Of a stretch of 64,000 nucleotides of DNA, positions 8,956-62,504 are shown piece by piece. Numbering within the stretch: the stretch's first letter is position 1; every line of letters begins with the position of its first letter. Position numbers and translations under genes: made by a program. Below the pieces are notes generated by a model, which saw only the letters and a list, made by a program, of their open reading frames with translations, ran no database searches and was not told the DNA's origin. This DNA is from Octopus sinensis (Eukaryota): contig NW_021832231.1 of the NCBI RefSeq assembly GCF_006345805.1, forward strand, positions 62,001-126,000, given 5' to 3'.

Positions 8956-8970
8956 TACGCGTATTCAACT

Positions 8971-9114
8971 TTTTTTATTTAACCCGAGAATCACCAACAG
9001 TTAATTAGGGTAATTAATTAGGTGATTCCAACAATCCTCAATATCTTTCTCAGCTTTTCCCGATGTTGGACTCTCGACCCAACGCAAGTCGGAACAGACG
9101 GGGAACAGTTTTCG
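8971..9114. repeat. ~145-bp dispersed repeat, copy 1 (probably a LINE 5' end on the minus strand)
   Basis: Near-identical to 30137-30282 (TCACCAACAGTTAATTAGGGTAATTAATTAGGTGATTCCAACAATCCTC..GGAACAGACGGGGAACAGTTTTCG). Confidence 0.85.
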
Positions 9115-9377
9115 AAAAGAATTGTATCGGGGTGATGTGCTTCTGGTCACTAATTGACATATTATGGTCTTTTGACAGTTGGTACTGTTCAATGGCTAAG
9201 AATCCGTATTCGACTTTAGTTCACCTAATGCTTTCCTTAATTATTTTTTATTTCTATGATTATATATTTTCTAGTTAAACTTGACTGAATTAAAAATAAA
9301 ATTTTCAAAATTATATTTTTCACGATTTTCATTAATTTCTTGTGGTTCACTTGTCTTGGTTTTAGTTTTGAGTATAG

Positions 9378-29879: not shown

Positions 29880-30282
29880 TGTGGATAAAATAGGTGAACC
29901 ATTTTCTCTTTTAGCCGTGAAATTCACATGTATTAAACGCAAACTACTCGGACACCTACGTGTTCACTTTCCTGATTTTCTCAGCAGGCACAAATGCCCT
30001 CTCCAGCATTCGAAGATCACAAAATATGGATCCCTCTGTTTTGTCTCCTTGCCTTTGCGACCAGCAGTATCCTTTCTAAACGTTCGCGTGTGCTTTTTTG
30101 AGACACAAATCTTCTCTAAGACGTCCTCCGGGGCAATTTTTTTATTTAACCCAAAAATCACCAACAGTTAATTAGGGTAATTAATTAGGTGATTCCAACA
30201 ATCCTCAAGATCTTTCTCAGCTTTTCCCGATGTTGGAATCTGGACCCAACGCAAGAGCGGAACAGACGGGGAACAGTTTTCG
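29880..30282 (-). mobile_element. Probable LINE 5' end/ORF1 remnant, containing copy 2 of the 145-bp repeat
   Basis: 30137-30282 matches 8971-9114; minus-strand LLVIFGLNKKIAPEDVLEKI resembles an ORF1 start. Confidence 0.5.
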
Positions 30283-30399
30283 TATTGAACCGGGTTTATT
30301 TGTCTGTCGATTTAATAGTTTTAATATTGTTTTATTTAATAGTGTGGTTTTTCAAAAAATGGATTGATTTATAGACTGAAGAATACACTTTCATTAATT

Positions 30400-41905: not shown

Positions 41906-43078
41906 TCATATTTCCCCATCAGTATATTCACTCATAAATGGCTTGTACTGTCGATAATTCTCCCACATGGCCCCTACAATTTGACTCGTGATTATGTCGC
42001 TGGAATTCTTGGATATCAAGTGAAGGATCAGGACCCCGTCAGTCATAATGAAATTGGAAACAAATTCTCTGCATCTCCGTCTTTCCGTAGCAGAACTGTA
42101 CTTTCCGGCAAGTCTCAAATGTTTTTTGATAAAGCGGTATCGACTGAGAGGGAGCATAAGCGCAAAGAACCACAACACAAAGTTGATGCAAGTGAGAATT
42201 GCCGTGATGACCAACCAGAACCAAATGAATATAAATATCTTTTCGTTGAACAAGTTAATAGGGAGGACACACTGTACTCGATAATTATGGACAGCCCCCA
42301 GTTTCCTGACATCAAAGTCACACATTGTAATGGTCGGGAAGCCAGGAGTAAGGTTTATCTGATCGACACCAGAGATCAGTCCTCGAATCATTTTAAAGCC
42401 ATACATTCCATACTCCGAGCCCAGAAAACTGTCGAGAAGTACAAGCTGAACAACAGTATTGGCGACGTACAGAAGCTTAGTGATTAAGTAAAGAATCGAG
42501 ACATATCGACCACTCGTGAAGCAACCGAGACGACCAAAGATAGTTTTGGCAATCTGTTGGTGGTCGAGGTAATTGTCGATATATCTGGTCACGTGCTTGG
42601 CTATTTTGTCCTTCTCGTCAATTCGAAGAGTCGATTGGAACATTTCGGCGGCGTCGATGATATTCTGGATTGTGATTCCGGATTTCCTGTTGAAGCTTCG
42701 CCAAATCATGCCGGGAATGTAAAACAGAATGGCCTGAGCCAGGAGGATGAGGGGAACCCACTGGTAATAACTGATCTCCAAATTATTGGTTTCTTCAGTG
42801 CCGGGGAGAGGCAGGTCTCGTCGAATGGGATAGTAATATGTGTTTTTGACCCAGCACACTTTGTTCATGTACTCGACGTGGGACTCTTCTCTGCAGCTGT
42901 CGTAGCACCAACATGATATGGGTTCGCCCACGTACTGCTTTGTGGAAACAATGATGGAGAAGATTATCAAAATGATGACAGTGTAGCGGTGGTTCAGACG
43001 GTCAATTCCGTCGTCGTCCGTGCTGAGTGTTTGGGAGGCGGCCACAGTAGCAAATGTTCTGATCAATTCCCCGGGCAT
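41906..43078 (-). CDS. Innexin (single exon)
   Basis: DDDGIDRLNHRYT; QYVGEPISCW; YYQWVPLILLAQAILFYIP; FPTITMCDF; VQCVLPINLFNEKIFIFIWFW; DGVLIL. Confidence 0.97.
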   Translation of the reverse strand: MPGELIRTFATVAASQTLSTDDDGIDRLNHRYTVIILIIFSIIVSTKQYVGEPISCWCYDSCREESHVEYMNKVCWVKNTYYYPIRRDLPLPGTEETNNLEISYYQWVPLILLAQAILFYIPGMIWRSFNRKSGITIQNIIDAAEMFQSTLRIDEKDKIAKHVTRYIDNYLDHQQIAKTIFGRLGCFTSGRYVSILYLITKLLYVANTVVQLVLLDSFLGSEYGMYGFKMIRGLISGVDQINLTPGFPTITMCDFDVRKLGAVHNYRVQCVLPINLFNEKIFIFIWFWLVITAILTCINFVLWFFALMLPLSRYRFIKKHLRLAGKYSSATERRRCREFVSNFIMTDGVLILHLISKNSSDIITSQIVGAMWENYRQYKPFMSEYTDGEI

Positions 43079-43546
43079 TACAGAACTGCTCACACGGGCA
43101 CGAAGTCAATTATAAGCACAAATTATGACCGAATATAATCAAATTAGCAGTCAGTCAATAACCAACTGATTGTCCCAATAGGAAGGTGTCAACAAATGGG
43201 AGACATCATAAATGGTCGAACATGGTCTTACTTAAATGGTCGAAGAGTTCACCGAATTTTCATCAAATCAATTCATTATCGGCATTGCCTAATTAGCAGA
43301 TTTGTACTCCAAAGTGAATAGATTAATTGACCTCTTTGATATCGAATTATTCTTAAAAGACAAATGTTTGTGAATTATTCTTAAAAAACGAGATTATTAC
43401 ACTACAAACTGCTGGACTCCCTATCAAACTGGAACCCTCTTAAAAGTATATTTATGAAACCAGAACAATCATTGTCTATCTAAACAATACACACACTAAT
43501 GGACTATCATTAAACAGAATCCCCGTTGAAATAGAACAACCGTTAA

Positions 43547-49830: not shown

Positions 49831-50149
49831 CCTAGCAATAATTTGTGTCAAATTCTACAACTGAAATTAGAATTAGGAATAATCATCCTCCAAGTGAAGT
49901 CATTGTTAGATCTGGTGACGAAAGAGAGCCTGTAGAAATAGTGACAAGACCTGCAAGTAGACAAACCGATCAATTTTTAAGGATACTGCAAAATCAACTT
50001 TGCTGACCATTTGAGCTAGTTGAAACTTAGACAAAATTTACATTTGATCTGTACAAATGAATTTAATACTTACGATTTCGTTATTATTAAGATGATTTTA
50101 ATAATTTAATTTAATCGATTTTGATAGCATCCTTCATTTGTTTTTCGTT

Positions 50150-50284
50150 ATGGTTAATAAAACGCGTAAATGGGATGACTTATATGTGCAATATGGATTC
50201 ACCAAATCTTTTGGAACAGGAAATGTGGATAAGGCGCAGTGTATGTTGTGCGATGCTTTAATTGGAAACAATTCATTAAAACCT
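50150..50284 (+). mobile_element. Buster-type hAT transposase, 5' half (BED finger) - element A
   Basis: MVNKTRKWDDLYVQYGFT..KAQCMLCDALIGNNSLKP; ends in TSD copy CAATTCATTAAAACCT (50269-50284); left TIR not found. Confidence 0.8.
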
Positions 50285-50720
50285 TTTTTTTCCTCAAAAG
50301 GATTTTATTTATGTAAACCAAAAGAGAAATAGTCATTGGCAGATAGCCAGAGTATTGCCTCTGACTATTGCTATAGATATTCTTTCGATTAAATACCGGT
50401 GCTCACACGGGTCGCCGGTAACCCTTCCGATTAATGAGGCAATGCGCTGGAGTAGGGTCCGAGTAGAAGGCCCCTGTATTCCCGACGTCTCAACAGCCAG
50501 GGGGACAAACACTCTCCCATTCCCAATTCCAGCGTATTTCTCAGCTTTTCTCTTCTCTGCCCGTTCAGACGGGGCTCCAGGATTCTCGATGCATAATTTG
50601 ATGTTCTGATTGGAAAAGGAGTTCACACACGTGACGTCCCAAACCAGACACTTTCCCCTCTGGAATGGAAATGTGGTCATCCCATCGGGTCTTCTGCCGT
50701 CCTCTACGAAAATCAGAGGG
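50285..50720 (-). mobile_element. CRE-like (RLE-type) non-LTR retroelement 3' end, copy 1
   Basis: DGRRPDGMT..G.CLVWDVTC..AEKRKAEKY..FVPLAVETSG..ISIAIVRGN* (PD..D restriction-like endonuclease); short A-tail. Confidence 0.85.
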
Positions 50721-51082
50721 AACAAAACATAGGGAAAAAAGAAAGATGTAAGTCAGTATTTGAATAAAAAGAACAATCTTCAAAAAGAAAAACGCCAGAT
50801 GTAAGCAAAACTCAGGAATATTTGCGTCTAAAACTTAATTATACACAAAAATGTTGAAATTTAGGTAAACTTTAAACAAGACCGACATTAAAAAAAAGTA
50901 AATGATCATTTTAAGGAAGAAGTAAAGGGAAATATTATAAAAATTAGAATACCTACTACACTTTTAATGAAATCTACAAAATAACTTAAATTCAAGTTCA
51001 TAACTATTACATTTAATAAACCACGTTACTTAATGAGTTTAAATCGAAAAATATTTTAAATGTATTAAGTTACATAATTGGA

Positions 51083-53423
51083 CTAAAGTTTTGATTGATA
51101 TTTATATGCGGAAAATCTCAAAGCAGCCAGATAAAAACCTTGAAACAAATTTAAGAATACGAAGATAAATTGCAGAAAAACTGAATGGTGATACTTTATG
51201 AAAAAACCAAAAACCCAAGTTATGCCTTAAAAAATAAAAATAATTTACCAAAAAAGAATATTAATCCGAATAGCAAAAAAAATTCTTTAAATTTTGAAGA
51301 GGTGTTTTTTGAAAATGATTTTTTTTGTGTTCTATTCTTATCGAGAGTAATAAAGATGAGTATGAAAATAATGACATTAATAGCTAAGCAAATAGCAATA
51401 GGGAAGTATAAGCCCAAATATAATGCAAGTCCATTAAGCCAGCATCTAAAAATGAAGTTAAACAAAAACATTTGTTTTTGCATATACATTTTCCAATTAA
51501 TAGCAGATATGATGATTGGTGGAATGATGGGAACGCCTAGTTGATTTTATTATTAGAAACTGACCCCAAGCAGTACAAAATGCAATTTTTAAAAAATCGA
51601 CTGGAATATTTCCAAAAACTCGAACAAATAAATAGTAGAAAAAAACCCCTTCTACTGTCATCCAGGCAAACACAGACAGCAGTAAATAATGCAGTAGGAA
51701 TCCAACTGCCCCACAACTCCTATTTTTACCGAACTCCATCCCAAAAGCAAAAACAAGGTTCATCAGAAGCATTGCAATGCATAAATTTAAAAATAAATGA
51801 AATGAATAAGATTTATGTCCATTTCTGAAATTTAAAGTAATCACATGACCTCCAAGACACAATCGAGTAAATAATGACGACAATCTCTGTTATTATTGAT
51901 ATTGCAAGACCAACATTTGTAAGAATGCTCAGCCATTTATATTCTTTTACTATAGACGGGTCCTATATGCAATAATTATTTCACAAAAAATACAAAAATG
52001 ACTGCAAAATTAGTCAGATGAGTACACGTACATTGTATCCCATTTTTTGTAATCTTACTGGTGCATCCATTTGACTTCCAGTCTTGTGTGGACACATTCA
52101 GATATACACAAACTGATTTTATAGTGAAATCTTATTTATTTTTATACAAATATACTTCCCGGAAACTCAAGTTTTATTTTCAAATTGTGAATCGGTTCGT
52201 TAGTATTCACCAATATCCCCACAACAGATGTCTGAAGCTTTGATTTATTAAAAATGTTAAAAAGTTCATCGTTCTTCCAAAAAACAAATGCTATTTTTAG
52301 TTTTGCAGATTCTTACAGGTAAAATATTTTATTTTACCTTCTACTAAATCCTGAAGATGTTTTTTGTCAAATTTTATTTTAATTGCGGATTCAGTATTAT
52401 CTAGAATCGACGAATTTATGTTTGTTCTGTTCAAAGTCAACAACTTTGCATCAAAATTTTCTAAACTAAATCTGGTTGTGCCGGGTTTGGCATCAGTAGA
52501 AATTATTATATTTGTTATGGTCTTCATAATTCTAATTAAATTAAAAATTATGTATGACTTGATGTTTGTTGATTTCACCATTTCATCAGAAACTGTGGAT
52601 TTGGAATAAGACAATTGATCGCTGATTTTAGAAAGAATTGCCTAAATGCAATAATAATTTGGTTGCAATTGTTTTATACTGTAAACAAAAAATACCTGAC
52701 TTTCTTTTTCCGTCAAGTTATTTTTTGCATTTGCATAATTCAAAAACTGGTTAATGTTATTTACTTCCTATTAATTATTTTCAGTACTCCGGTTCACCTC
52801 ATTTGTGCTTTCGACTTGGATTATCTGAAAATTCCTAAATATGTCGTAATTGCATGTTACAGTTCTTGATTCTTTTACAAACAATAATTTTATTATTACC
52901 ATTTCCATTTTTACATTCTTTAATGTCACCTTTTGAAATAGAATCTATGTTAGGACAATAATCGTGGATTTTTTCACAGTTTGAAATATATTGATCGTGT
53001 TTATTTTGAATTAAATAACCGAAATATCTGTCATGACAGTCCCTAAGCTGCAAAAACATCCATGGGCAGTAAGTCAAATCATTTATATATCTAAAATTAA
53101 ATTATTAATTAGACTTTCCGTCCAAACTGTAAACATTAGTCCCATAAGCATAAACATTCAATTCAGAGAAGTTCACAGTTCCAAGCCATCCTAGATCTAA
53201 AAAAAATGTGAATATAATTACCATCACTAATGTTAATATTCAATCATTTTAAAATATTCTTCATATATTGTTATCGGTTTGTAATTTGTACTCCATAAAC
53301 TCATGTATTCAAACCATGTAACATTTTTAATCTTTATGTAGTCATATGAAATAACTATAATAAATAATTCTCAAAATTACTCCAGTTTTCATAAATAAAC
53401 AAAAATAAGATGAAAGTAAACAT
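51083..53423 (-). CDS. Adhesion GPCR (signal peptide, Cys-containing ectodomain, GPS, 7TM); possibly pseudogenised
   Basis: GPS CVY..W.SNGC..CTCTHLTNFAVI; LNLCIAMLL; CGAVGFLLHYLLLSVFAWMTVEG; AWGVP; CWL; GITWVFG; NLFQGF; apparent frameshift near 53235. Confidence 0.85.
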
Positions 53424-54317
53424 TCGTATTTTTATACTTCGGATTGGAATATATAGCTAGCGACAATTTTAGAATAATGACAACCGCTAACCATTTTTTT
53501 ATTGCTGTACATCGAGTTGACATTTGATCGTATAAAATAATTGCTTCGGTTCTGCGAATCTGAAATTTTTTAATAAAATTGGTATATATTTGTTTAATTT
53601 ATTTATTGAGAAATCGTTGAATGATCGTATCAGTTCGAATGTTTATTTTGAAAAAAGCATTTAATGTTATTTCGATTTGATTATTGTATAAAATACACAT
53701 TGTCATTACCAATATGAATTAGAATTATTGTGGTTAGCTTAAATTCTAGGAATTCGCATGAGTTTTTAGAATTTTATCAAACCGGAATACACATTAACTC
53801 CCACAACTACGTTAAACGTGATCATGCATAAAAGATTACTGTTCTGCAACAGCCTTGTTAACAATCGGCAAACAGCCAGACGAGAAAGATTAAATCACTA
53901 TCTTTGAGAAGATCAATTGCTCGAGCATACATTTTATGGTCTTTTGCGTCCCAAGTAGAAAATACCCAACACAAATCATGTGCAAGAATACTCTTTGTCA
54001 CGTGTTGTCGCTGCGACACAGTATTGAGAATAAAATTGAAATATTTTTTAAAAACAACCACTTGTGATAAAAAGCGCAAATAGTCCGACTATTTTCTTTA
54101 TGATCGGTTAGGATGTGTTTATTTTTGTATTGAGGTCAAAAAAATAATACAAGAGCAATAAAAGGTGGTAAAACATGTTCAAAGAAAAATACAAATGATT
54201 AACCAGAATAAGATTATCGAACTGAATATATAATCTCTCACCTGGGTCAATTTTAGGTATGATTTTGATTGGAAGAGGAAGGCTGCTATGGTTTTTTTAT
54301 CTTTGTGATGTGTAGTG

Positions 54318-56576
54318 CAGGGGTCGGGAAAAATTTTTAGAGAAGATTTAATTTTTGACATTCTTGTAAATTTCTATAAATTAAAGAGCCATCTTTTACT
54401 ATTTTTCCAATTAAAAATTCAATAATAATTATGAATTTATTAAAAAATTAATTATTCTCATTAATGAGAAATGTGACTCCTCATTTCTTTGGATAGTTAT
54501 CTAATGTCTGGATCGTAACTTGTCAATTTTAATCTGAGGTTTGATTCTAGATTCAGTTCTGTAATTTTGTTTTTTATTTCGATTTGATATACAGTAAACC
54601 AAAAAAAAACGAACACTACATTTTTCCTAAAATTTCCAAGAAACGAATCAAAAAAAATCTAAATAGAATTTTAACAATAATAAACAAATAAAAACTAATA
54701 TTTTTATTTTTGCAAAAAAAATATATTTACCGCCTTTTTACGGCAAAAGTATAATCTGAACCAAAATAAAAAACGAACAAAATTTTTTATTTGTAAATGT
54801 TATTAAATATATGATTTTTTTAAAAAATTATTAATATTTGGGACGCTATAATAACTTATTATGGCCAGACAATTGAGTTTTGAAGAAAAGGGAACAATTA
54901 TCGGTATTTACAAATGCGGAGAGACGTATCGCGAAATACAACGTATAACTAAAAGATGGTGTAAAAGATCACTTGATACCATATCGAAAACAATTCGAAA
55001 ATATAAACAAAATATTCCATGCACAAGAAAATATGGTTCTGGTCGTCCCCGGCTCCTAAATGAAGAAGATTTTTAAAAAATCAATAAGGCAAGGATTGAA
55101 GATCCAAATTTTAATTGCGTAAAATATGCGAAGGCATTGAAAGAAGAAACTGGGAAAATGTAACACCTGAAACAATCAGAAATACACTAAAACAAAGAGG
55201 TTTCAAAGCATTTCCGCCTACTAAAAGACCACATCTTACTAAAAAACACAAAGAACGAAGAATGGAAATCTGTCAAAGATGGAATATGCTATTGGAATCA
55301 CGTTATATTCAGCGACGAATGCAAATTCAACTTAGTAAACAACGACGGACGAAGATTTGTATAAAGACAACAATCCGAAAAGTTTGTTTCCGTAATATTA
55401 CTGAAACCGTAAAATTTGGAAAAGGAAGTGTGATGATATGAGGTGCATTTACGTCTGAATATTTTAGTAATCTGGTTTGAATAAAAAAAATAATGAATGG
55501 ATCATTGTATGTTAACATTTTGGCAAACAATTTGTTGCCATTTCTGGAAAAAATTAGGATTATTGATCCAATTTTTCAACAGGACAACGACCCAAAACAC
55601 ACATGTGACCAAAACCAAAGACCCAAAATATTCTTTGAGACTAATAATATCGAATTGCTACCTTGGCCAGCGCAAAGCCCGGATCTTATCCCCATTGAAC
55701 ACGTATGGAGCTATATGAAGGCAAAAATAAGGGGGAAATCGTATTCCAAAAAAGAGGAACTTTTTGAAGAATTACAAAAAATTTGGAATGAGATAGGAGT
55801 GGATTATGCAAAATCATTGGTAGAGTGAACGAATATTGTCTGTAATTGCGACACGTAGTGGGCATACTAAATTTTAATTTGTAAATACAATTTTGTTCGT
55901 TTTTTATTTTTGTTCAGATTATACTTTTGCCGTAAAAAGGAGGTAAATATATTTTTTTTTGCAAAAAAAAATGTTATTGTTTATATATTGTTAAAATTCT
56001 ATTTAAATATTTTTTTTGATTCGTTCTTGGAAATTTTAGGACAATGTAGTGTTCGTTTTTTATTTTGGTTTACTGTAAGTTAGAAAACTATAGTTGTTTT
56101 TAGATAAAGGTATATTATTATCTTGATCAAGATTTTTGTCTGAATATTTTTAGCAAGTTTTTCCAGTTTTCTTTTGCGAGTAACCCACTAAATATTTTTG
56201 CAAAATTCGCGTGCTTTGTGTTAAAATGGTTCTCTAAATTTGATTTTTTGTTTCGATTTAAAGTTTTCTGACAAATAAGGCATTCTCGTGGTTGTTTTAA
56301 ATTAGATGTGAATGCAAAAGATTCAGTCTAATTTGATTGAAAATGTCGCGTATTATCAATTTTTGTATTTCTAGCCATATATAAATTTAAAATTGAGATT
56401 TAATGGTCACCCCAACGACGCCGCATTGTGTATTGAATGACAGTTTCCGCGGAGCACGGCGACCGAGATTTTCTGAAAAAGCCAACCCGTCTCTTTCTAG
56501 TGGCTTTTTTCAAGAAGAGCCTAGTTAAGATTTAAAAGCCACCAAAGCCTAGCAAGCCAGCTTTTGCCGACTCCTA
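54318..56576 (-). mobile_element. Internally deleted SPIN/GTF2IRD2-like hAT element hosting the Tc1 insertion
   Basis: Ends CAGGGGTCGGGAA / TTGCCGACTCCTA; minus-strand RHFQSN*TESFAF..CLICQK..KKSNLENHFNTKH and C-terminal LESNLRLKLTSYDPDI..SH*; left flank GTGTAGTG (nnnTAnnn), right flank only 5/8 match. Confidence 0.65.
54592..56075 (+). mobile_element. Tc1 transposon, IR/DR type, defective transposase (54861-~55870)
   Basis: TA TSDs; ~200-bp inverted repeats starting CAGTAAACC with inner repeats of ACCAAAA.AAAAAACGAAC; GSGRPR, FSDECKFNL, FQQDNDPKH, WPAQSPDLIPIEHVW. Confidence 0.93.
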
Positions 56577-56921
56577 AAGTGGTGGATTCCTGGGTTCCCC
56601 AAATCACAAATAACAAGTAGATTTTGACCAAGGATTCAAGAGTTAAGGGAAATTCTGAAAAACGTGAATTAATGGTGAATATTTACTGCCTAATTAATAT
56701 GTTGAGCATCAACCAACCGTATACTCAATTCCTTGCGTTTGATTTAAAGCGTTTTGTCATAATTCTTTATATCATTTCAATATGTGGCATCAAGTTTAGG
56801 CCACCAATAAACCAAGTTTCATATAAATAACGAAAATGCAAGCTGTTATTAATTTGATTTACCCAAGTGCTCGAAGTAGCAAATTTTCACCTTTTACTGA
56901 GGCTTGTAAGCAAGTCTAAAC

Positions 56922-59095
56922 CAGTGTTTCTCAACTTTTTTTTCCCTGAGGCCCATTTTCAGGGTCATATAAAAACTCAGGCCCATTGCCTTTAATAAAA
57001 CTTTGATTAACAAAAAAGTATTTTTATTAACATAAAAAATCTTATTAAAATGTCAATGACTACACTGCTCTTGATGTCTATCTATCAATTTGTCAAGTTG
57101 AATTTCCAGATCTTGGTTCAACCTCAAACGTAAGTCTCCTCTCTTCTCAATCTGCAATTGATTGCGTTTTTTTGTGAGTAAATCGTTTGTTGCAGAAAAT
57201 CCTGTCTCAACCAACCAGTGGTGGGAAAGCCAAGTACAAACGGAACAACTTTTTCAAAGAGTAATGGATGAATCGATTCTACTTTCATCCATCCATATAA
57301 GCCATCCCTTTCAATATTTTTCATAATACTTTGTTCTCCTTCAGTTCAAGAAGTTCTCCAGCAATAATAGGATCAATGTCTTTTTCACTTAATACGTCAA
57401 AATGTGCTATATCTATAATCCAACTAGGCGGATTCATTTCGATGATATCTTTAATCTTCTAGTCATATCTTCTTTCAAGCATTTCAAGTGGTCAGTGCAG
57501 CTTGCGATTACTTCTGAGCTCGGAGCAGTTTTGGCAAAATTACAAAATAAGCAAATTCATTTTTTTGAAGATGCATCTTCCAGAGACATAACTTGTTCAA
57601 AAAAGAGCGTACTTTCTCAGCACTATCTATCAGATTAGCATTTCGCCCTTGCAGTGTCATGTTCAGTTGGTTGACATGTGCGAATAAGTCAGCCAGGTAA
57701 AAAATCCTTGCTTTGTATCGTTGTTATTTATCACTGAAAACAAAGTCTCAGCTTTATCTTTCTGCTTCTTGCTACAAGCTTGTGTTTTCATGTCATGAAC
57801 AAAAATAAGAACCATATCCCACATTTCAGCAAGACGAACTAGGGAATTTCCTTTGGAAAGCCATCTCACTTCAGTGTGCATGAGGAGTCTCTGGTGGTCC
57901 TCATGTTCACATAAATGTTGAAATAGGCGGTCATGCAAAGCATTGGCTTTGACAAAATTCACTGTTGAAACAGCGACTTTCAATGCATGTTCCATGTCAT
58001 CATTGAGAGATTTAGCACAAAGATGTTCTCGATGGATGATGCAATGAATTGCCAATATATGAGGGGCAACTTTTTTTAATTTAGCTACAAAGCCATTCTG
58101 TTTGCCGGTCATAGCGCTGGCACCGTCTGTTGCAATCTGCAACAGATTTGACAGAGGGATCCCATTATCGTACAGATAGTCGTAAACAGCCGCATATATA
58201 GTGTCGCTTCGTGTGTCAATCAACTTTTTTATAATAACATTTCTTCATGAATTGCCATTGCATCAATATATCGGACATAAGTAAGTAATAAGGCAGAATT
58301 GTTGATTGTTGTCTCATCAATTTGTAGTGAGAACTTAGAAACTTTTAATTTTTCCACAAGCTGTTTCTCGAGGTTTTCTGCCATTTCAATTTGCCTTCTC
58401 TTCACTGTGTCATTAGACAATGGGATTTTTTGTAGAATGTTGGCAGCCTGTTCTCCTAGCAGTTCTTTAGCACAGATCAACATTGCTGGCTTCACCAGAC
58501 GTTCTGCAATTGTATGTGGCTTCCCCACCTTAGCAACCAGTTCACTCACTGCATAACTGACTTTTAGTGTCTTGTTATTATGCTCATTTGCTTTTTTTAA
58601 GCAGAATTCTAAAGTTTTTGGAGCATTCTTTTGCGTAACTCCACTTTCTTCCTGAAATAGCTGCGCTCCTTTCCAACAGAAGCAGGATGCTTCAACTGTT
58701 GATGGGCGAACAATTTTGATTTCTTCATGGAAACATTTGTCATTACTAAGCCACAGTCCACACATTCAGGCCTCTTAGAATCAGCACTTGATGGGATGAA
58801 GCCTAGTAATAAAAAATCAGTCTGGTATTTGCGTGTAGTCTTCTTCTTTTTTCCTTGTGTACTTTTGACATGAACTATACAATCAGGCCTATAATATTTA
58901 AATTTAAATATGACAATATCATTAAATTAAAAACAAATCAAATCAATTTGAAAATAATAACGAATAAAGATTTATTAGTATTAGTATTAACATATTTTCT
59001 TTGAGGCCCACTCCAGGCCCAATTAAATCTTCAGGCCCATTTCAAAATTTCTCAGGCCCACAAGTGGGCCTGGGGCCCAACGTTGAGAAACACTG
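56922..59095 (-). mobile_element. Full-length Buster-type hAT transposon with frameshifted transposase
   Basis: 14-bp TIR CAGTGTTTCTCAAC; perfect 8-bp TSD GTCTAAAC (56914-56921, 59096-59103); AGGCCCA subterminal repeats; FSLQIDETT, ATDGASAM, HCIIHREHL, HTEVRWLSKG. Confidence 0.95.
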
Positions 59096-59135
59096 GTCTA
59101 AACGACCCAAAAAGCCTCTCTACTTTTGCTTAGAC

Positions 59136-59525
59136 TTTTTTTTTCTTACTTATTTTATTCTATTTATGTAAACCAAAAGGGAAATAGTCATTGGCAGATA
59201 GCCAGAGTATTGCCTCTGACTATTGCATAGATATTCTTTCGATTAATACCGTGCTCACACGGGTAGCCGGTAACCCTTCCGATTAATGAGGCAATGCGCT
59301 GGAGTAGGGTCCGTAGAAGGCCCCTGTATTCCTGACGTCTCAACAGCCGGGGACAAACACTCTCCCATTCCCATTCCAGCGTATTTCTCAGCTTTTCTCT
59401 CTCTCTGCCCGTTCAGACGGGGCTCCAGGATTCTCGATGCATAATTTGATGTTCTGATTGGAAAAGGAGTTCACACACGTGACGTCCCAAACCAGACACT
59501 TTCCCCTCTGGAATGGAAATGTGGT
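59136..59525 (-). mobile_element. CRE-like retroelement 3' end, copy 2 (direct repeat of copy 1)
   Basis: Near-identical to ~50305-50678 with small indels; different tail junction; 5'-truncated exactly at the TSD. Confidence 0.88.
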
Positions 59526-60710
59526 CAATTTATTAAAACCTGCCAATTTATTAAGCGTTCGGCTCACTCTGATAATACAGATAGTCTTGATGTTTTTAAA
59601 TTAAAACGAATCAAATATGATGATCACGGGACCCTTACATCATATGTATTGTCCCGGACCGCAAAATTATATATGGAGGTTTCATATGAGGCCTTTTTAA
59701 CAAGAATTATTTGTAGATTGCTCGACTTATAGCCAGAAACAAAGTATTTCATTGTTCTGGAGAAAAACTAATAAAACCAGGTGCGTTACTAATGATTGGG
59801 AAAGATGTTGAAAAAGAATTTAAGAATATACCACTTTTGAATGATACCATCTCTCTATTAATGAGATGTCAAAAGATTTGCTAGAACAACTAATTTTTTG
59901 TATTCACCACAGTCAATTTCCAATAAGCATCCAGTTGGATGAATTTACAGATATCAGTTCAATGTGCCACTTAATAGCATTTTTTCGATTTGTTAAAGAC
60001 GATTCTGTCGTGGAAGAGTTTTTATTTTGTTTGGAATTGACAGGAAGAACACGAGGAAATGATATGTTTCATCTCTTTTCGTCTTTCCTTGTTTCCAATA
60101 ATATTCTCTGGACTAAAGTTGGGTCGATATGCACTGATGGAGCACCTGCCATGCTCGGACATTGATCTGGTTTATTGCACTGGTTAAGGATGTCGCACCT
60201 CATATCATCGCAAACCATTATGGAATACATATGTATGCTCTTGCTGTAAAGACGATGCCTCAAGAATTGAAAATTGTTCTTGATTCGACCGTAAAGTCAG
60301 TTAATTTTATTCGTGCGAGGGCGACTAATCATAGGCTTTTTAAATTATTGTGTGAAGAAATGAACATTCAGTACTAATTTTCCACACTGAAGTTCGGTGG
60401 TTGTCATGAGGAAGGGTGCTTAAACGGGTTGCCAAACTAATTGGTGCACTCACTACTTTTTTACAAGAAATAAATAATATAGAACTTGCCAATATGTTCG
60501 CAGATTATGCCTTCAAACAAAAGTTATTCTATCTTGCTGATATATTTGGAATAATAAACGAATTAAATTTATCCATACAAGGTAAATCTTTCTTTTTTTA
60601 TCCTGAAGGTAAAGCATAGAAGTTTTTGAAAAAGTATCTGAATTTAAGCAAAAGTTGAATTTATAGAGGAAAAAATTAACTAAAAATGTTATTCCCATGT
60701 TTCCGATGTT

Positions 60711-61471
60711 TATTTATTTATTAAACACCAAGATGCAATTCGAGACCGATCTCTATGGACATCCTGGAGTCCAGATGGCGACTCTTTGGACACATATTAA
60801 GACTTGACAGCCTCACTCCGCCGATATCGCGATGGAAAACTACTTTGCCCATTCCAAGGAGACTTCCGGGAAGACCCAGGTCCTCTGGCTACCACGCTAA
60901 ATGAAGATCTAGCTGGAATTAATAAAAAACTGAAAAATGGCGATGATCTCGACTCACTCAGGACGATCGCAACTGACCGGAGAGCCTGAGACGCATGACC
61001 GGGAGAATTTCATGGTGGCACAAGGAAGCTTAATTAACTTGTGACTTTTCCGAAAGTGCTTTTAATAATAATAATAAACACCAGACCACAGTTAAGACCA
61101 AACTAATTAGCGTGTGATCCCGACGCACTTCGACGGAGATCCTCCGGAAGTTCATCCTATGCAAGTGCATCGTCCTGCGCGACGATGTCCCGGGAGAGGA
61201 GAGCTATTGGTCCTTTTTCGGTGAGCATTAGGTGCCCCCTCGGCGTTTCAAATCATCTCGAAATCTCCAAGTGAATTTGGTGGACCACGTAACGCCTTTC
61301 TAAGGCCGGATAGGAAGGAGATCCTTTTTGACATACTGTGTCGTGCCAGATGTACTCGTCACCTCACAGGCAAAGGAACTTCGACGAGATTAACCCCGAC
61401 TCCAAAGTAGCCTCTTCTGGATTCGAACCCACGACGGCTGAATTCCAGTATCCAGAGCATACTCTTCAGCC
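60711..61471 (-). mobile_element. tRNA-derived SINE inserted in hAT element A
   Basis: Minus-strand head TGGCTGAAGAG (A-box-like)..GGTTCGAATCC (B-box); (TAAA)n tail; ATGTT at both flanks; removal restores FPM-LEELIG in the transposase. Confidence 0.7.
60731..61074 (+). mobile_element. 5'-truncated RTE-like LINE nested in the SINE
   Basis: RWRLFGHILRL..DDLDSLRTIATDR; (TAA)n tail; TSD TAAACACCA at 60722-60730 and 61075-61083. Confidence 0.85.
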
Positions 61472-62504
61472 ATGTTGGAGGAATTAATTGGAAATAATAA
61501 ACCTGAAAAATGGATTATTTTACAAATCGACGAACACCGAAAAAATTTGCAAATTAAAATCTGAGAATATTTTAATAGCGATCAGATTGTTCCCTGATTG
61601 GATTTTAGAACCTTTTTTGTGTAAGATTGATGAGGCTCAGGAACTTCCTTTTCTACAAAAATTAATCGATTTAAGAAGCTCTGTGACTGCAAGGGTTACT
61701 TTTATAATTTTTGTGATTATTCAGATATGTTTCAATTCTTGCACACTTATGGAATTTTGGAGTAAAATGATTTTCGTTATTGACTATGGCTAGTATGCAA
61801 TATTTAATTCCTTATCCAACAACATACTTATGCAAAACTGCGATGTCTTGCTTATCATTTATTAAAAATAAATCTCGTAGTCGATTGAAAATTAGAGATG
61901 ATATGCGACATGGATTCAAATATTACAAAACTTGTTGCAGAAAAGCAACAACAAATATCTCACTAGAATTAAATCTTTTACACTTTTTTCACATAAAATA
62001 TTTTTTTTATTTTTTTTAGTTAGAAAATAATTCATCTTTTATAATTAAATCATTTATCTCAAAAAAAGATATGTTAAAATTTAAAAATCAATAGGGGGTA
62101 CTAGGGATCCATTTTTAAATTTATCAAAAATTTGAAAAAAATTAAGAACCGCTGTGCTAGACAATCTTTTAGGCACAAATTTTATTATTACCCGCATGAC
62201 CACCAGGAAAGGTATGGTAGGTTAGGTGATCTCGGACTCCAATATTTTCAAATTCCTCCCAGATTGTCCTTTACCGATCCAACGGTTCTCCGATTTCTTT
62301 TTTCACATGATTGGAGTGCAATTTTATGACAAAGCTAAATCCCTCTGCCTAGTTTAAAATTACTCCAAGAACGTATAAGCACGTCTTCAATAAATAAACC
62401 GAATCTTGCTTTAAATCTTCTGTCTGCAGTAAATAAAGTGAACTGAGACTTTGATGGAATATTCATTTGTCAGCAATTGGTCTCATTTAAGGTTGTAAAT
62501 GTAC

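Follow-up and report, generated by a model that had tools for sequence, protein, structure and literature searches.

A receptor gene within a split hAT element

The window (the whole stretch of 64,000 nt that was analysed) contains a hAT element that is interrupted by a receptor gene and the DNA around it. From left to right, the hAT element encloses one copy of a 16-nt repeat, a 3' end of a predicted RLE-type non-LTR retrotransposon (end A), the cargo, a second such 3' end (end B) and the other copy of the repeat. This structure is present in the assembly as earlier described, and it comprises the following features.

50077..50284, plus strand: left part of the outer hAT, with the transposase start (MVNK...NNSLKP); 83-94% identity to other hAT copies
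50269..50284, plus strand: left copy of the target-site duplication (TSD), CAATT(C/T)ATTAAAACCT; single copy in 8 other hAT loci
50285..50714, minus strand: RLE end A, comprising 413 nt from the 3' end of the element, a tail tag specific to its source and poly(A); 99.0-99.5% identity to its closest copies
50715..59135, minus strand: cargo, a collinear copy of G000:C8702:352818-357320 (the parent-type locus) plus extra insertions
50715..50800, minus strand: 5' stub of an old relic from a related RLE family (parent tblastn match at 357237-358350)
51083..53423, minus strand: adhesion-type GPCR gene (7tm_2), with 14 introns of 23-54 nt in the gene model
54318..56577, no strand assigned: small hAT-type non-autonomous element, with terminal inverted ends in window and parent; about 510 nt in the parent
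54592..56075, plus strand: Tc1/mariner element flanked by TA dinucleotides, in a stretch of 1705 nt missing from the parent
56407..56518, minus strand: old RLE 3'-end relic, present in the parent too
56922..59095, minus strand: inner hAT with the 8-bp TSD GTCTAAAC, of a very young high-copy family; missing from the parent
59136..59527, minus strand: RLE end B, consisting of poly(A), a unique tail and 371 nt of the 3' end
59526..59541, plus strand: right copy of the TSD, CAATT(C/T)ATTAAAACCT
59542..62154, plus strand: right part of the outer hAT up to its 3' TIR; 89-93% identity to other copies

The 16-nt repeat brackets the cassette as proposed, its two copies (50269-50284 and 59526-59541) agreeing at 15 of 16 positions, a match with a chance probability of about 6e-8, or about 2e-5 once the register is allowed for. 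The 16-mer occurs uninterrupted, once each, in eight distinct other hAT loci, all of which (8/8) represent empty targets. A single outer TSD encloses A, cargo and B, and neither A nor B alone is flanked by a TSD of its own; the host-gene segment in the hAT element is, as claimed, one insertion bounded by one TSD. No alternate or empty copy of this particular hAT locus, whose flanks are unique, was found in the one collapsed assembly, nor were canonical single-insertion intermediates, whose absence such an assembly cannot prove.

The outer hAT element has no 5' TIR in the window, where homology begins at 50077, and its right part holds an additional insertion at about 60711-61471. We take it to be a Buster element from its motifs and the central TA of its 8-bp TSD; Pfam detected no hAT domain in the hAT fragments. 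That the two halves might stem from different families is refuted: another hAT locus (L142, on C9002) contains both the 16-mer, once, and a 7-nt deletion in common with the right half of the window copy, and both halves thus belong to one family. All three DNA transposons attributed to the cargo are present as well, but the small hAT-type element is found already in the parent, and only Tc1 and the inner hAT are absent there. The inner hAT corresponds to one short-read contig of 2179 nt (depth 2671), the two differing by 2 substitutions and 9 gaps.

The retrotransposon family and its two ends

The family encodes, at locus L102, a single open reading frame of 928 aa with a reverse transcriptase (RVT_1, E=3.7e-14) and a PHD finger. 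RLE-type elements are defined by a C-terminal CCHC knuckle and a PD..D endonuclease motif; the frame contains both candidate motifs (CRC...H...C and RPDG...WDVT), and Pfam found no APE family in it. Judged by this coding capacity, the family is an RLE-type non-LTR retrotransposon. The narrower label 'CRE-like' is a tentative lead; none of the 120 homologs among the matches listed carries a clade name. Copies have an A-rich tail, varying 5' truncation and lengths of 62-2976 nt (an early idea of a short element of fixed length was dropped), and at least 115 young 3' ends of the family were found.

Trypanosomatid CRE inserts site-specifically, a trait that is not universal in the CRE clade, and some RLE clades are site-specific. 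CRE had been considered as repeatedly targeting this 16-mer, in which case a site-specific element would have entered the same 16-mer of two independent hAT copies, with the inner halves lost later. The existence of such clades speaks for this route, but among 88 distinct copies 31 have a TSD of their own, 8-17 nt long (cross pairs: 250 of 7656), and the sequences of these solo TSDs all differ from one another. The targets are varied and have in common only the insertion motif TT|R, which is present in 15 of the 17 solo TSDs that could be scored, the background being 5%. In addition, the other hAT loci are empty in eight of eight cases and the inner junctions fall in one contiguous parent segment. 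On these sequence comparisons, a site-specific double hit is effectively refuted.

As noticed previously, A and B are directly oriented 3' ends with different tails and truncation points; they are 96.6% identical over 379 nt. With their different tails they represent two distinct element molecules, each having a tail and, at its 3' junction, the insertion motif in full (B) or in part (A). The left start of A stands as given before, whereas its right end lies at 50714 and not at 50720, other copies running on with CCTGCAGG. Its tail tag also occurs on three other records, which represent two distinct solo insertions, one with its own TSD of about 9 nt, and A is thus an ordinary product of an active source. 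It joins the cargo through a 4-nt microhomology (AATC, read against the C8896 copy). The tail of B was found once in the assembly; its poly(A) adjoins the cargo where the parent reads GAC TT|G (junction b), which fits TT|R, while the hAT nick, T|G, fits T|R only and is a weaker match. The last 2 nt of B (CA) overlap the TSD, forming a 2-nt microhomology.

Diagnostic SNPs were mapped along both ends, as had been suggested, but among 41 aligned copies A and B have every subfamily allele in common and differ only privately, so that no crossover is mappable and concerted insertion is inseparable by sequence from recombination of earlier insertions. The last 126 nt of B are clean and its changes lie 3' of these. 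Its indels resemble assembly errors, since short-read family contigs restore the six listed and the DNA next to B has an equal excess of deletions.

Other cassettes of this kind were sought within this one RLE family: none exists among 10 other same-orientation pairs, five of which are duplicates of one insertion, and none of the pairs has an outer repeat. A cross-TSD survey of 102 copies (39 from BLAST, 60 from pattern matching, the one at C8896:83k and both ends in the window, but not a further 9 listed and 15 unlisted pattern hits) yielded no convincing reciprocal pair, and the other high scores represent AT-rich chance, with 29 of 10302 cross pairs scoring at least 10. The C8896:83k copy, tried as a reciprocal product, has A's tail and is a solo insertion inside a tandem repeat.

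The cargo and its parent-type locus

The search for a donor of the GPCR segment led to a collinear locus of 4.5 kb, inverted and 240 kb away on the same contig (G000:C8702:352818-357320). The cargo is 95.5% identical to it over 50708-54379, and 46 of 1920 non-genic sites differ. The two bridging ends carry 4 private changes in 784 nt where 9.4 are expected (P ~0.04), and the distances among the window, its parent and a third paralog are roughly equal (92, 90 and 86 of 2153); because of these too few changes and near-equal distances the segment may in fact derive from a different allele or paralog.

Adhesion GPCRs have a GPS-like motif ahead of a secretin-family 7TM domain and a long N-terminus. 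The gene in the cargo shows a 7tm_2 match and, in its model, a GPS-like motif (W..NGC...CTCTHLTNFAV), in agreement with its previous identification as an adhesion GPCR; its N-terminal region is highly variable among the paralogs, of which there are five others. The frame is open apart from a 2-nt gap in exon 2, which is likely an assembly error; a window-type contig has 348 nt over the 346 positions concerned. All 14 introns of the gene model (14/14) are retained and lie in the sense orientation of the RLE element. They can be spliced, as X2 contigs skip two of them and an X3 contig one of those two; at the window-private sites within X2 (51644, 52620) the other allele alone was seen. The cargo also includes 1.8 kb of DNA upstream of the gene, and an rpS15 start follows about 165 nt downstream of junction b.

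According to the preliminary description, the segment moved as a composite unit with LINE ends already on both sides, or by retrotransposition of a read-through RNA running from one resident copy to the next. Neither is supported, as no young RLE is present at either cargo boundary in the parent-type locus or in the C8896 copy. Nor was there an excision scar, i.e. parent flanks joined to a young RLE, at C8702:353-357k, C8896 or C8702:548k (right flank), the sole occurrences of the flanks; the last of these is an rpS15-like paralog without a young RLE. The old RLE relic in the parent extends outward in a register different from that of A. An older RLE-GPCR-RLE bracket in the parent, whose relic ends are 79% alike, had no outer repeat on inspection.

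The retained introns had been taken to favour a DNA template, and with 14 of 14 sense introns kept this is the most likely reading: the GPCR segment was likely copied as DNA from the locus 240 kb away. An RNA origin would require either one reverse transcription with two template switches (from element RNA to an unspliced transcript from near the rpS15 promoter and on to another element RNA) or an unsampled allele with an RLE at b from which read-through started. The three parts are indeed co-oriented inside one TSD, as in tripartite LINE chimeras (PMC2104539), and a divergent transcript could start near b, about 165 nt from the rpS15 start. The intact sense introns and the upstream DNA argue against it, however, as do the match of b to the genomic insertion motif, the absence of an RLE at b in both homologous loci and a source in cis, which would be unexpected. 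We regard an RNA origin as highly improbable.

Slightly less improbable, and still quite unlikely, is that the junctions are real and their connections wrong, either through a 240-kb inversion, with the order hAT-left, A, cargo, rpS15 ... relic, cargo, B, hAT-right, or through haplotypes that the assembler mixed at the RLE repeat or within the cargo. Polishing of the region is poor, with 15 gaps in 379 nt and 9 in the inner hAT, and several duplicated segments occur among the assembly loci compared. In short-read contigs compared over 50680-60400, the window-type GPCR contig has a depth of 33 against 86-154 for parent-type contigs and joints, and none of the contigs listed bridges a junction; contigs break at the repeat. 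However, a misjoin cannot create a TSD or motif-true junctions, the repeats are about 400 nt long, and the cargo copies are 2.4-4% apart and differ by two insertions. A misjoin at the RLE should also leave RLE-joined parent flanks elsewhere, and none were found.

Origin of the cassette and known systems

We propose, with a probability of about one half, that two target-primed reverse transcriptions, one in the hAT element and one at the parent, were resolved with 4.5 kb copied between them, a route absent from the preliminary description. A ribonucleoprotein would nick the hAT element and make cDNA A (430 nt, source tail included), while a second would prime at the parent TT|G, about 165 nt upstream of the rpS15 start, and make cDNA B. 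The 3' end of cDNA A would engage the parent at AATC, 4.5 kb away, that of cDNA B would anneal at CA to the far end of the hAT nick, and repair synthesis would copy the intervening segment. Resolution might be direct, without crossover. Alternatively, a 240-kb inversion with duplications of 16 nt and 4.5 kb might arise first and be reversed later, when the two copies of the cargo recombine. Tc1 and the inner hAT were likely inserted afterwards.

Consistent with this proposal are the single outer TSD with none for A or B alone, the eight empty hAT targets, the collinear parent in cis at 240 kb with no young family member at its boundaries, the 14 sense introns kept with 1.8 kb of upstream DNA, the match of junction b to TT|R (15/17 against 5%), and the derivation of A from an active source in a family with a 928-aa open frame for PHD finger and reverse transcriptase. 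On the other hand, two events are demanded within one cell, the hAT nick fits TT|R less well, the bridges carry 4 private changes instead of 9.4 (the source may be another allele or paralog), no second cassette occurs in the 10 other same-orientation pairs and no junction-spanning read or contig is among those listed. The duplication of 4.5 kb also exceeds the 419 bp given in the accessible text on tumour L1 bridges (10.1101/2024.08.27.596794).

With all subfamily alleles shared by A and B, the sequence fits recombination between earlier insertions equally well. Here a solo copy Y would reside in the hAT element with a 16-nt TSD, and a copy X would link b back with a, either in a 4.9-kb circle (which includes the circle route suggested earlier) or at the junction within a tandem duplication; crossover or gap repair via the 378 nt common to X and Y would then place the cargo into Y. 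Such recombination predicts exactly the tails, truncation points and TSD seen; a length of 16 nt is normal for solo TSDs, which measure 8-17 nt, at least 115 young 3' ends are available as targets, and B, clean in its last 126 nt and altered 3' of these, could be a hybrid. Extrachromosomal circles are reported from dicyemids, although their median of 702 bp, in the available text of PMC6543705, falls short of the roughly 4.9 kb required. Three separate events are needed, no intermediate or scar was found in the assembly, no parent flank occurrence joins a young RLE, the hAT locus has no alternate copy there, the B tail is unique in it and the B indels look like assembly errors. We therefore consider recombination after integration possible, though clearly the less probable origin.

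Whether by concerted insertion or otherwise, the segment did enter the hAT element, as the preliminary description held in proposing a mechanism of receptor-gene mobilisation; as a mechanism this has one case and no second cassette. Since the cassette lacks ends of its own that would allow it to move again, it is likely no mobile unit but a duplication that happened once. It is rather unlikely that pairs of RLE insertions act as sutures in a recurring DNA-templated cis duplication of whole intron-bearing genes, promoter included. If they did, they would contribute to the growth of a variable family of adhesion GPCRs in the genome of this parasite and would represent an inherited counterpart of the two-L1 bridges of tumours; from a single case we make no claim on the origin of the five other GPCR paralogs. 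The concerted route itself, if true, would extend two-insertion bridging beyond tumour L1 to RLE elements and to plain gene duplications. The rival routes differ in the intermediate alleles that they predict.

Dispersed intron-bearing duplicates are not usually attributed to non-LTR elements, whose copies lose introns. Duplications via circular DNA likewise place an intron-bearing segment at a new site; they typically show permuted order, in contrast to the cargo, which is collinear with the parent, and a circle opened inside its RLE copy would likewise be collinear. Retrocopies flanked by LTRs through double template switches have a retrotransposon on both sides of a host gene and microhomology joins, but involve LTR elements and spliced mRNA and are movable again (PMC5131818), whereas here the ends are non-LTR, the cargo is unspliced and no further mobility is evident. 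The tripartite chimeras of Magnaporthe and mammals similarly combine three same-sense parts in one TSD with a 5'-truncated LINE 3' end as tail; their parts are RNA copies (PMC2104539), in contrast to a middle part with 14 introns and upstream DNA and a 5' part that is a second tailed, truncated element end. In L1, inserts may include genomic DNA templated close to the insertion site (PMC11702581) and two cDNA intermediates recombine in reporters (PMC13526784); as proposed for the cassette, ends made by target-primed reverse transcription capture nearby genomic DNA and are joined by microhomology, but these are cell-culture systems, and the accessible text of both reports describes no whole gene between two element ends under one TSD.

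An inherited LINE-gene-LINE cassette with introns under one TSD was not found in a literature that lay mostly outside the subscription journals; supplements of the tumour preprint may hold similar cases. In tumours, reciprocal translocations and inversions are known in which a pair of synchronous L1 insertions forms the bridges and the heteroduplications of the target measure 18 and 419 bp (10.1101/2024.08.27.596794). As here, two independent non-LTR 3' ends serve as bridges, share a target duplication and have no TSD of their own. Those events are, in the accessible part of that preprint, somatic, balanced exchanges by APE-type L1 with duplications up to 419 bp, whereas the present case involves an RLE-type element, a gene-bearing insertion of 4.5 kb and an intact parent-type locus. 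The cassette is a variant, in one instance, of known LINE-bridged rearrangements. Within one TSD it combines two element ends with a receptor gene of 14 introns that is apparently intact, and the same genome also shows both the empty target and the parent-type locus.

Target site and retroelement ends

A 16-nt sequence at positions 50269-50284 of the window (G000:C8702:62001-126000, taken from a 2.72-Gb assembly) recurs with one mismatch at 59526-59541, for which the chance probability, allowing for register, is about 2e-5. The site is covered in 12 of 21 scanned hAT locus records, representing 8 distinct loci, and all 8 carry the 16-mer once and unbroken; furthermore, a 7-nt deletion is common to the window's right hAT half and one of these loci (L142). 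On this sequence evidence, both halves are one element, not parts of different families, and the repeat is a true target site duplication (TSD), as held in the preliminary description. Searches with the window flanks, aimed at an empty allele, found no alternate allele of the locus. The outer hAT contains a further insertion at 60711-61471; one of its ends is T-rich, and it includes a fragment which we take to resemble the C-terminus of another LINE.

The insert is bracketed by two same-orientation 3' ends of one retroelement family (RLE):

50285-50714, RLE end A
59136-59527, RLE end B

These are 96.6% alike over 379 nt, and no crossover could be mapped along them because they share all subfamily alleles. 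The family's 3' end has at least 115 exact matches in the assembly, and one copy encodes a 928-aa frame with PHD and RT domains and a C-terminal zinc knuckle and PD..D motif. Among 102 RLE copies surveyed (88 distinct), 31 had their own TSD of 8-17 nt, versus 3.3% when the rule was applied to cross pairs. The targets differ among these TSDs; the family is thus not site-specific, and repeated targeting of the 16-mer by RLE is rejected. Where TSD ends were definable (n=17), TT stood at the end in 15 and a purine followed in all 17, a motif (TT|R) present at 5% of background positions. Neither A nor B has a TSD of its own; the sequence next to A's tail matches that next to B's 5' end. The tag in A's tail recurs in three other records from two solo insertions, of which one has a ~9-nt TSD; B's tail is unique.

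Under the rule used, a TSD was not seen in ~2/3 of the family's distinct copies (loci L097-L211), some of which may be blunt insertions and others bridges of deletions or rearrangements. L120 and L131 (C13217) are RLE ends 1.3 kb apart with an equal truncation point, ~140 nt of common 5' flank and different tails; they may represent a further local duplication linked to the element. Several RLE families have left relics at high density (~1 per 10 kb in C8702:310-370k and 475-580k and C8896:50-90k), and a second direct-repeat pair lies at 8970-9121 and 30137-30289 of the window (~146 nt, 95%, 21 kb apart).

Cargo, parent locus and GPCR gene

The cargo (50715-59135) is collinear with C8702:357320-352818, an inverted locus 240 kb away (the parent), and is 95.5% identical to it in the GPCR part. 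The parent lacks the inner hAT and a 1705-nt stretch holding Tc1; a small hAT-type element is present. No young RLE was found at either boundary of the parent or of a homologous C8896 locus whose GPCR interior is deleted, which speaks against a unit already flanked by LINE ends or a read-through donor, as envisaged earlier. Searches with both parent flanks revealed no excision scar. However, exclusions drawn from the assembled parent are limited, since the cargo may come from a different allele or paralog. Outside genes, cargo and parent differ at 46 of 1920 sites, and in the 784 nt of the bridges A and B there are 4 private substitutions versus 9.4 expected at half the cargo rate (P about 0.04). 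The window copy, the parent and a paralog at C8702:320k are about equidistant, GPCR paralogs show signs of conversion, and one dicyemid has a reported heterozygosity of 1.24% (PMC6736024). In the C8896 locus (67225-68072), ~850 nt of other DNA replace the GPCR interior. The inner hAT (56922-59095) belongs to a family collapsing into one 2179-nt short-read contig (depth 2671, ~20x parent-type depth; 2 substitutions); it is likely a DNA transposon that spread very recently or is still active.

Junction a, between A and cargo, shows a 4-nt microhomology (AATC) when read against C8896, the parent being off by one base. It lies within an old remnant from a related RLE family, out of register with A, so that, from its sequence, it is not a homologous crossover. 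At junction b, between cargo and B, the parent sequence is GAC TT|G; it matches the insertion motif and precedes the start of an rpS15-like gene by ~165 nt. A pyrimidine-rich run resembling a ribosomal-protein promoter begins right at b; the rpS15-like gene (Pfam Ribosomal_S19; L049:2100-2660, C8702:352.1-352.7k) has homologous stretches at three loci, the other two being C8702:548k and C8896:68.9k.

With a model of 14 introns, four translated GPCR paralogs (of five found) have open frames of 644-656 aa, and the window copy is open apart from a gap of 2 nt in its exon 2. This gap is likely an assembly error, as a short-read contig of the window variant has 348 letters for the 346 positions 52946-53291. 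The same contig matches the window where the parent differs (51 sites), which shows that the variant exists outside the assembly's consensus; the run X1 may be the source sample and so not an independent population. Introns of 31 and 54 nt are skipped at CT..AC ends in contigs of run X2, and the 31-nt intron in one contig of run X3 (run types not on record). From the intron lengths of 23-54 nt, the dicyemid median of 27 nt (PMC6543705) and the octopus label on the retroelement's nearest named database matches, we infer that the contig is dicyemid DNA co-assembled with its cephalopod host. An innexin frame of 399 aa (41906-43105, minus strand; Pfam E=1e-101) is uninterrupted, while tiny introns break up other genes of the region. 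Adhesion-GPCR paralogs number at least six (window 52946-53291; C8702:320k, 353k, 491k; C8698:5k, 53k); their N-terminal regions differ by ~15% between copies whose overall divergence is ~4%, and alleles are shared in a patchy pattern suggestive of gene conversion or selection.

Routes to the cassette

The region is error-rich (9 gaps versus the inner hAT contig; 15 gaps in 379 nt versus the parent), and the indels in B are probably also errors. Among the contigs listed, none bridged a junction. Of the 31 variant sites listed and within the alignment (part of a table with 107 further rows), 29 have the parent's allele in X1; the other two lie where the assembled parent has a 43-nt gap. With a depth of 33 for the window-type contig versus 86-154 for parent-type contigs and joints, a comparison made without a single-copy control, the cassette haplotype may be a minority. 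A wrong connection in the assembly is improbable, and the cassette is probably real.

The mechanism can be narrowed to two DNA routes. On the + strand the insert reads as one path, from the hAT nick through cDNA A, parent a to b and cDNA B to hAT at CA, requiring two priming events, at hAT and at b. Concurrent priming at both sites with cross-resolution is favoured, with a probability of about one half, because it would need no unseen intermediate, would account for the motif at b, for the kept introns and for a source in cis, and is not without precedent: two synchronous insertions are described in 10 of 13 L1-bridged reciprocal translocations, and an L1-bridged inversion has 18- and 419-bp duplications (10.1101/2024.08.27.596794). 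Since target and parent lie in opposite orientation on the same contig, crossing over would give a 240-kb inversion between two cargo copies, whose recombination would restore the assembled order. Recombination of a solo copy in the hAT with a second copy, located at the junction of a tandem or a circle, would produce the identical sequence. The circle origin proposed in the preliminary description thus predicts what is observed, but neither scar nor alternate allele was found, and we regard recombination as a distinctly less probable route. RNA routes are unlikely, although the cassette is laid out like tripartite chimeras (PMC2104539); the gene has the same sense as the element and keeps all its introns, which argues for a DNA template, in agreement with the earlier expectation.

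The search for further cassettes, covering one RLE family in an incomplete survey, found an outer TSD in none of 10 other same-orientation pairs, and no cross-matched TSD pairs stood out. The literature searched, of limited coverage, yielded close relatives and no inherited cassette in which two non-LTR ends enclose a gene with introns within a single TSD. Known from a single case and not found in that literature, the cassette represents a variant of LINE-bridged rearrangement.
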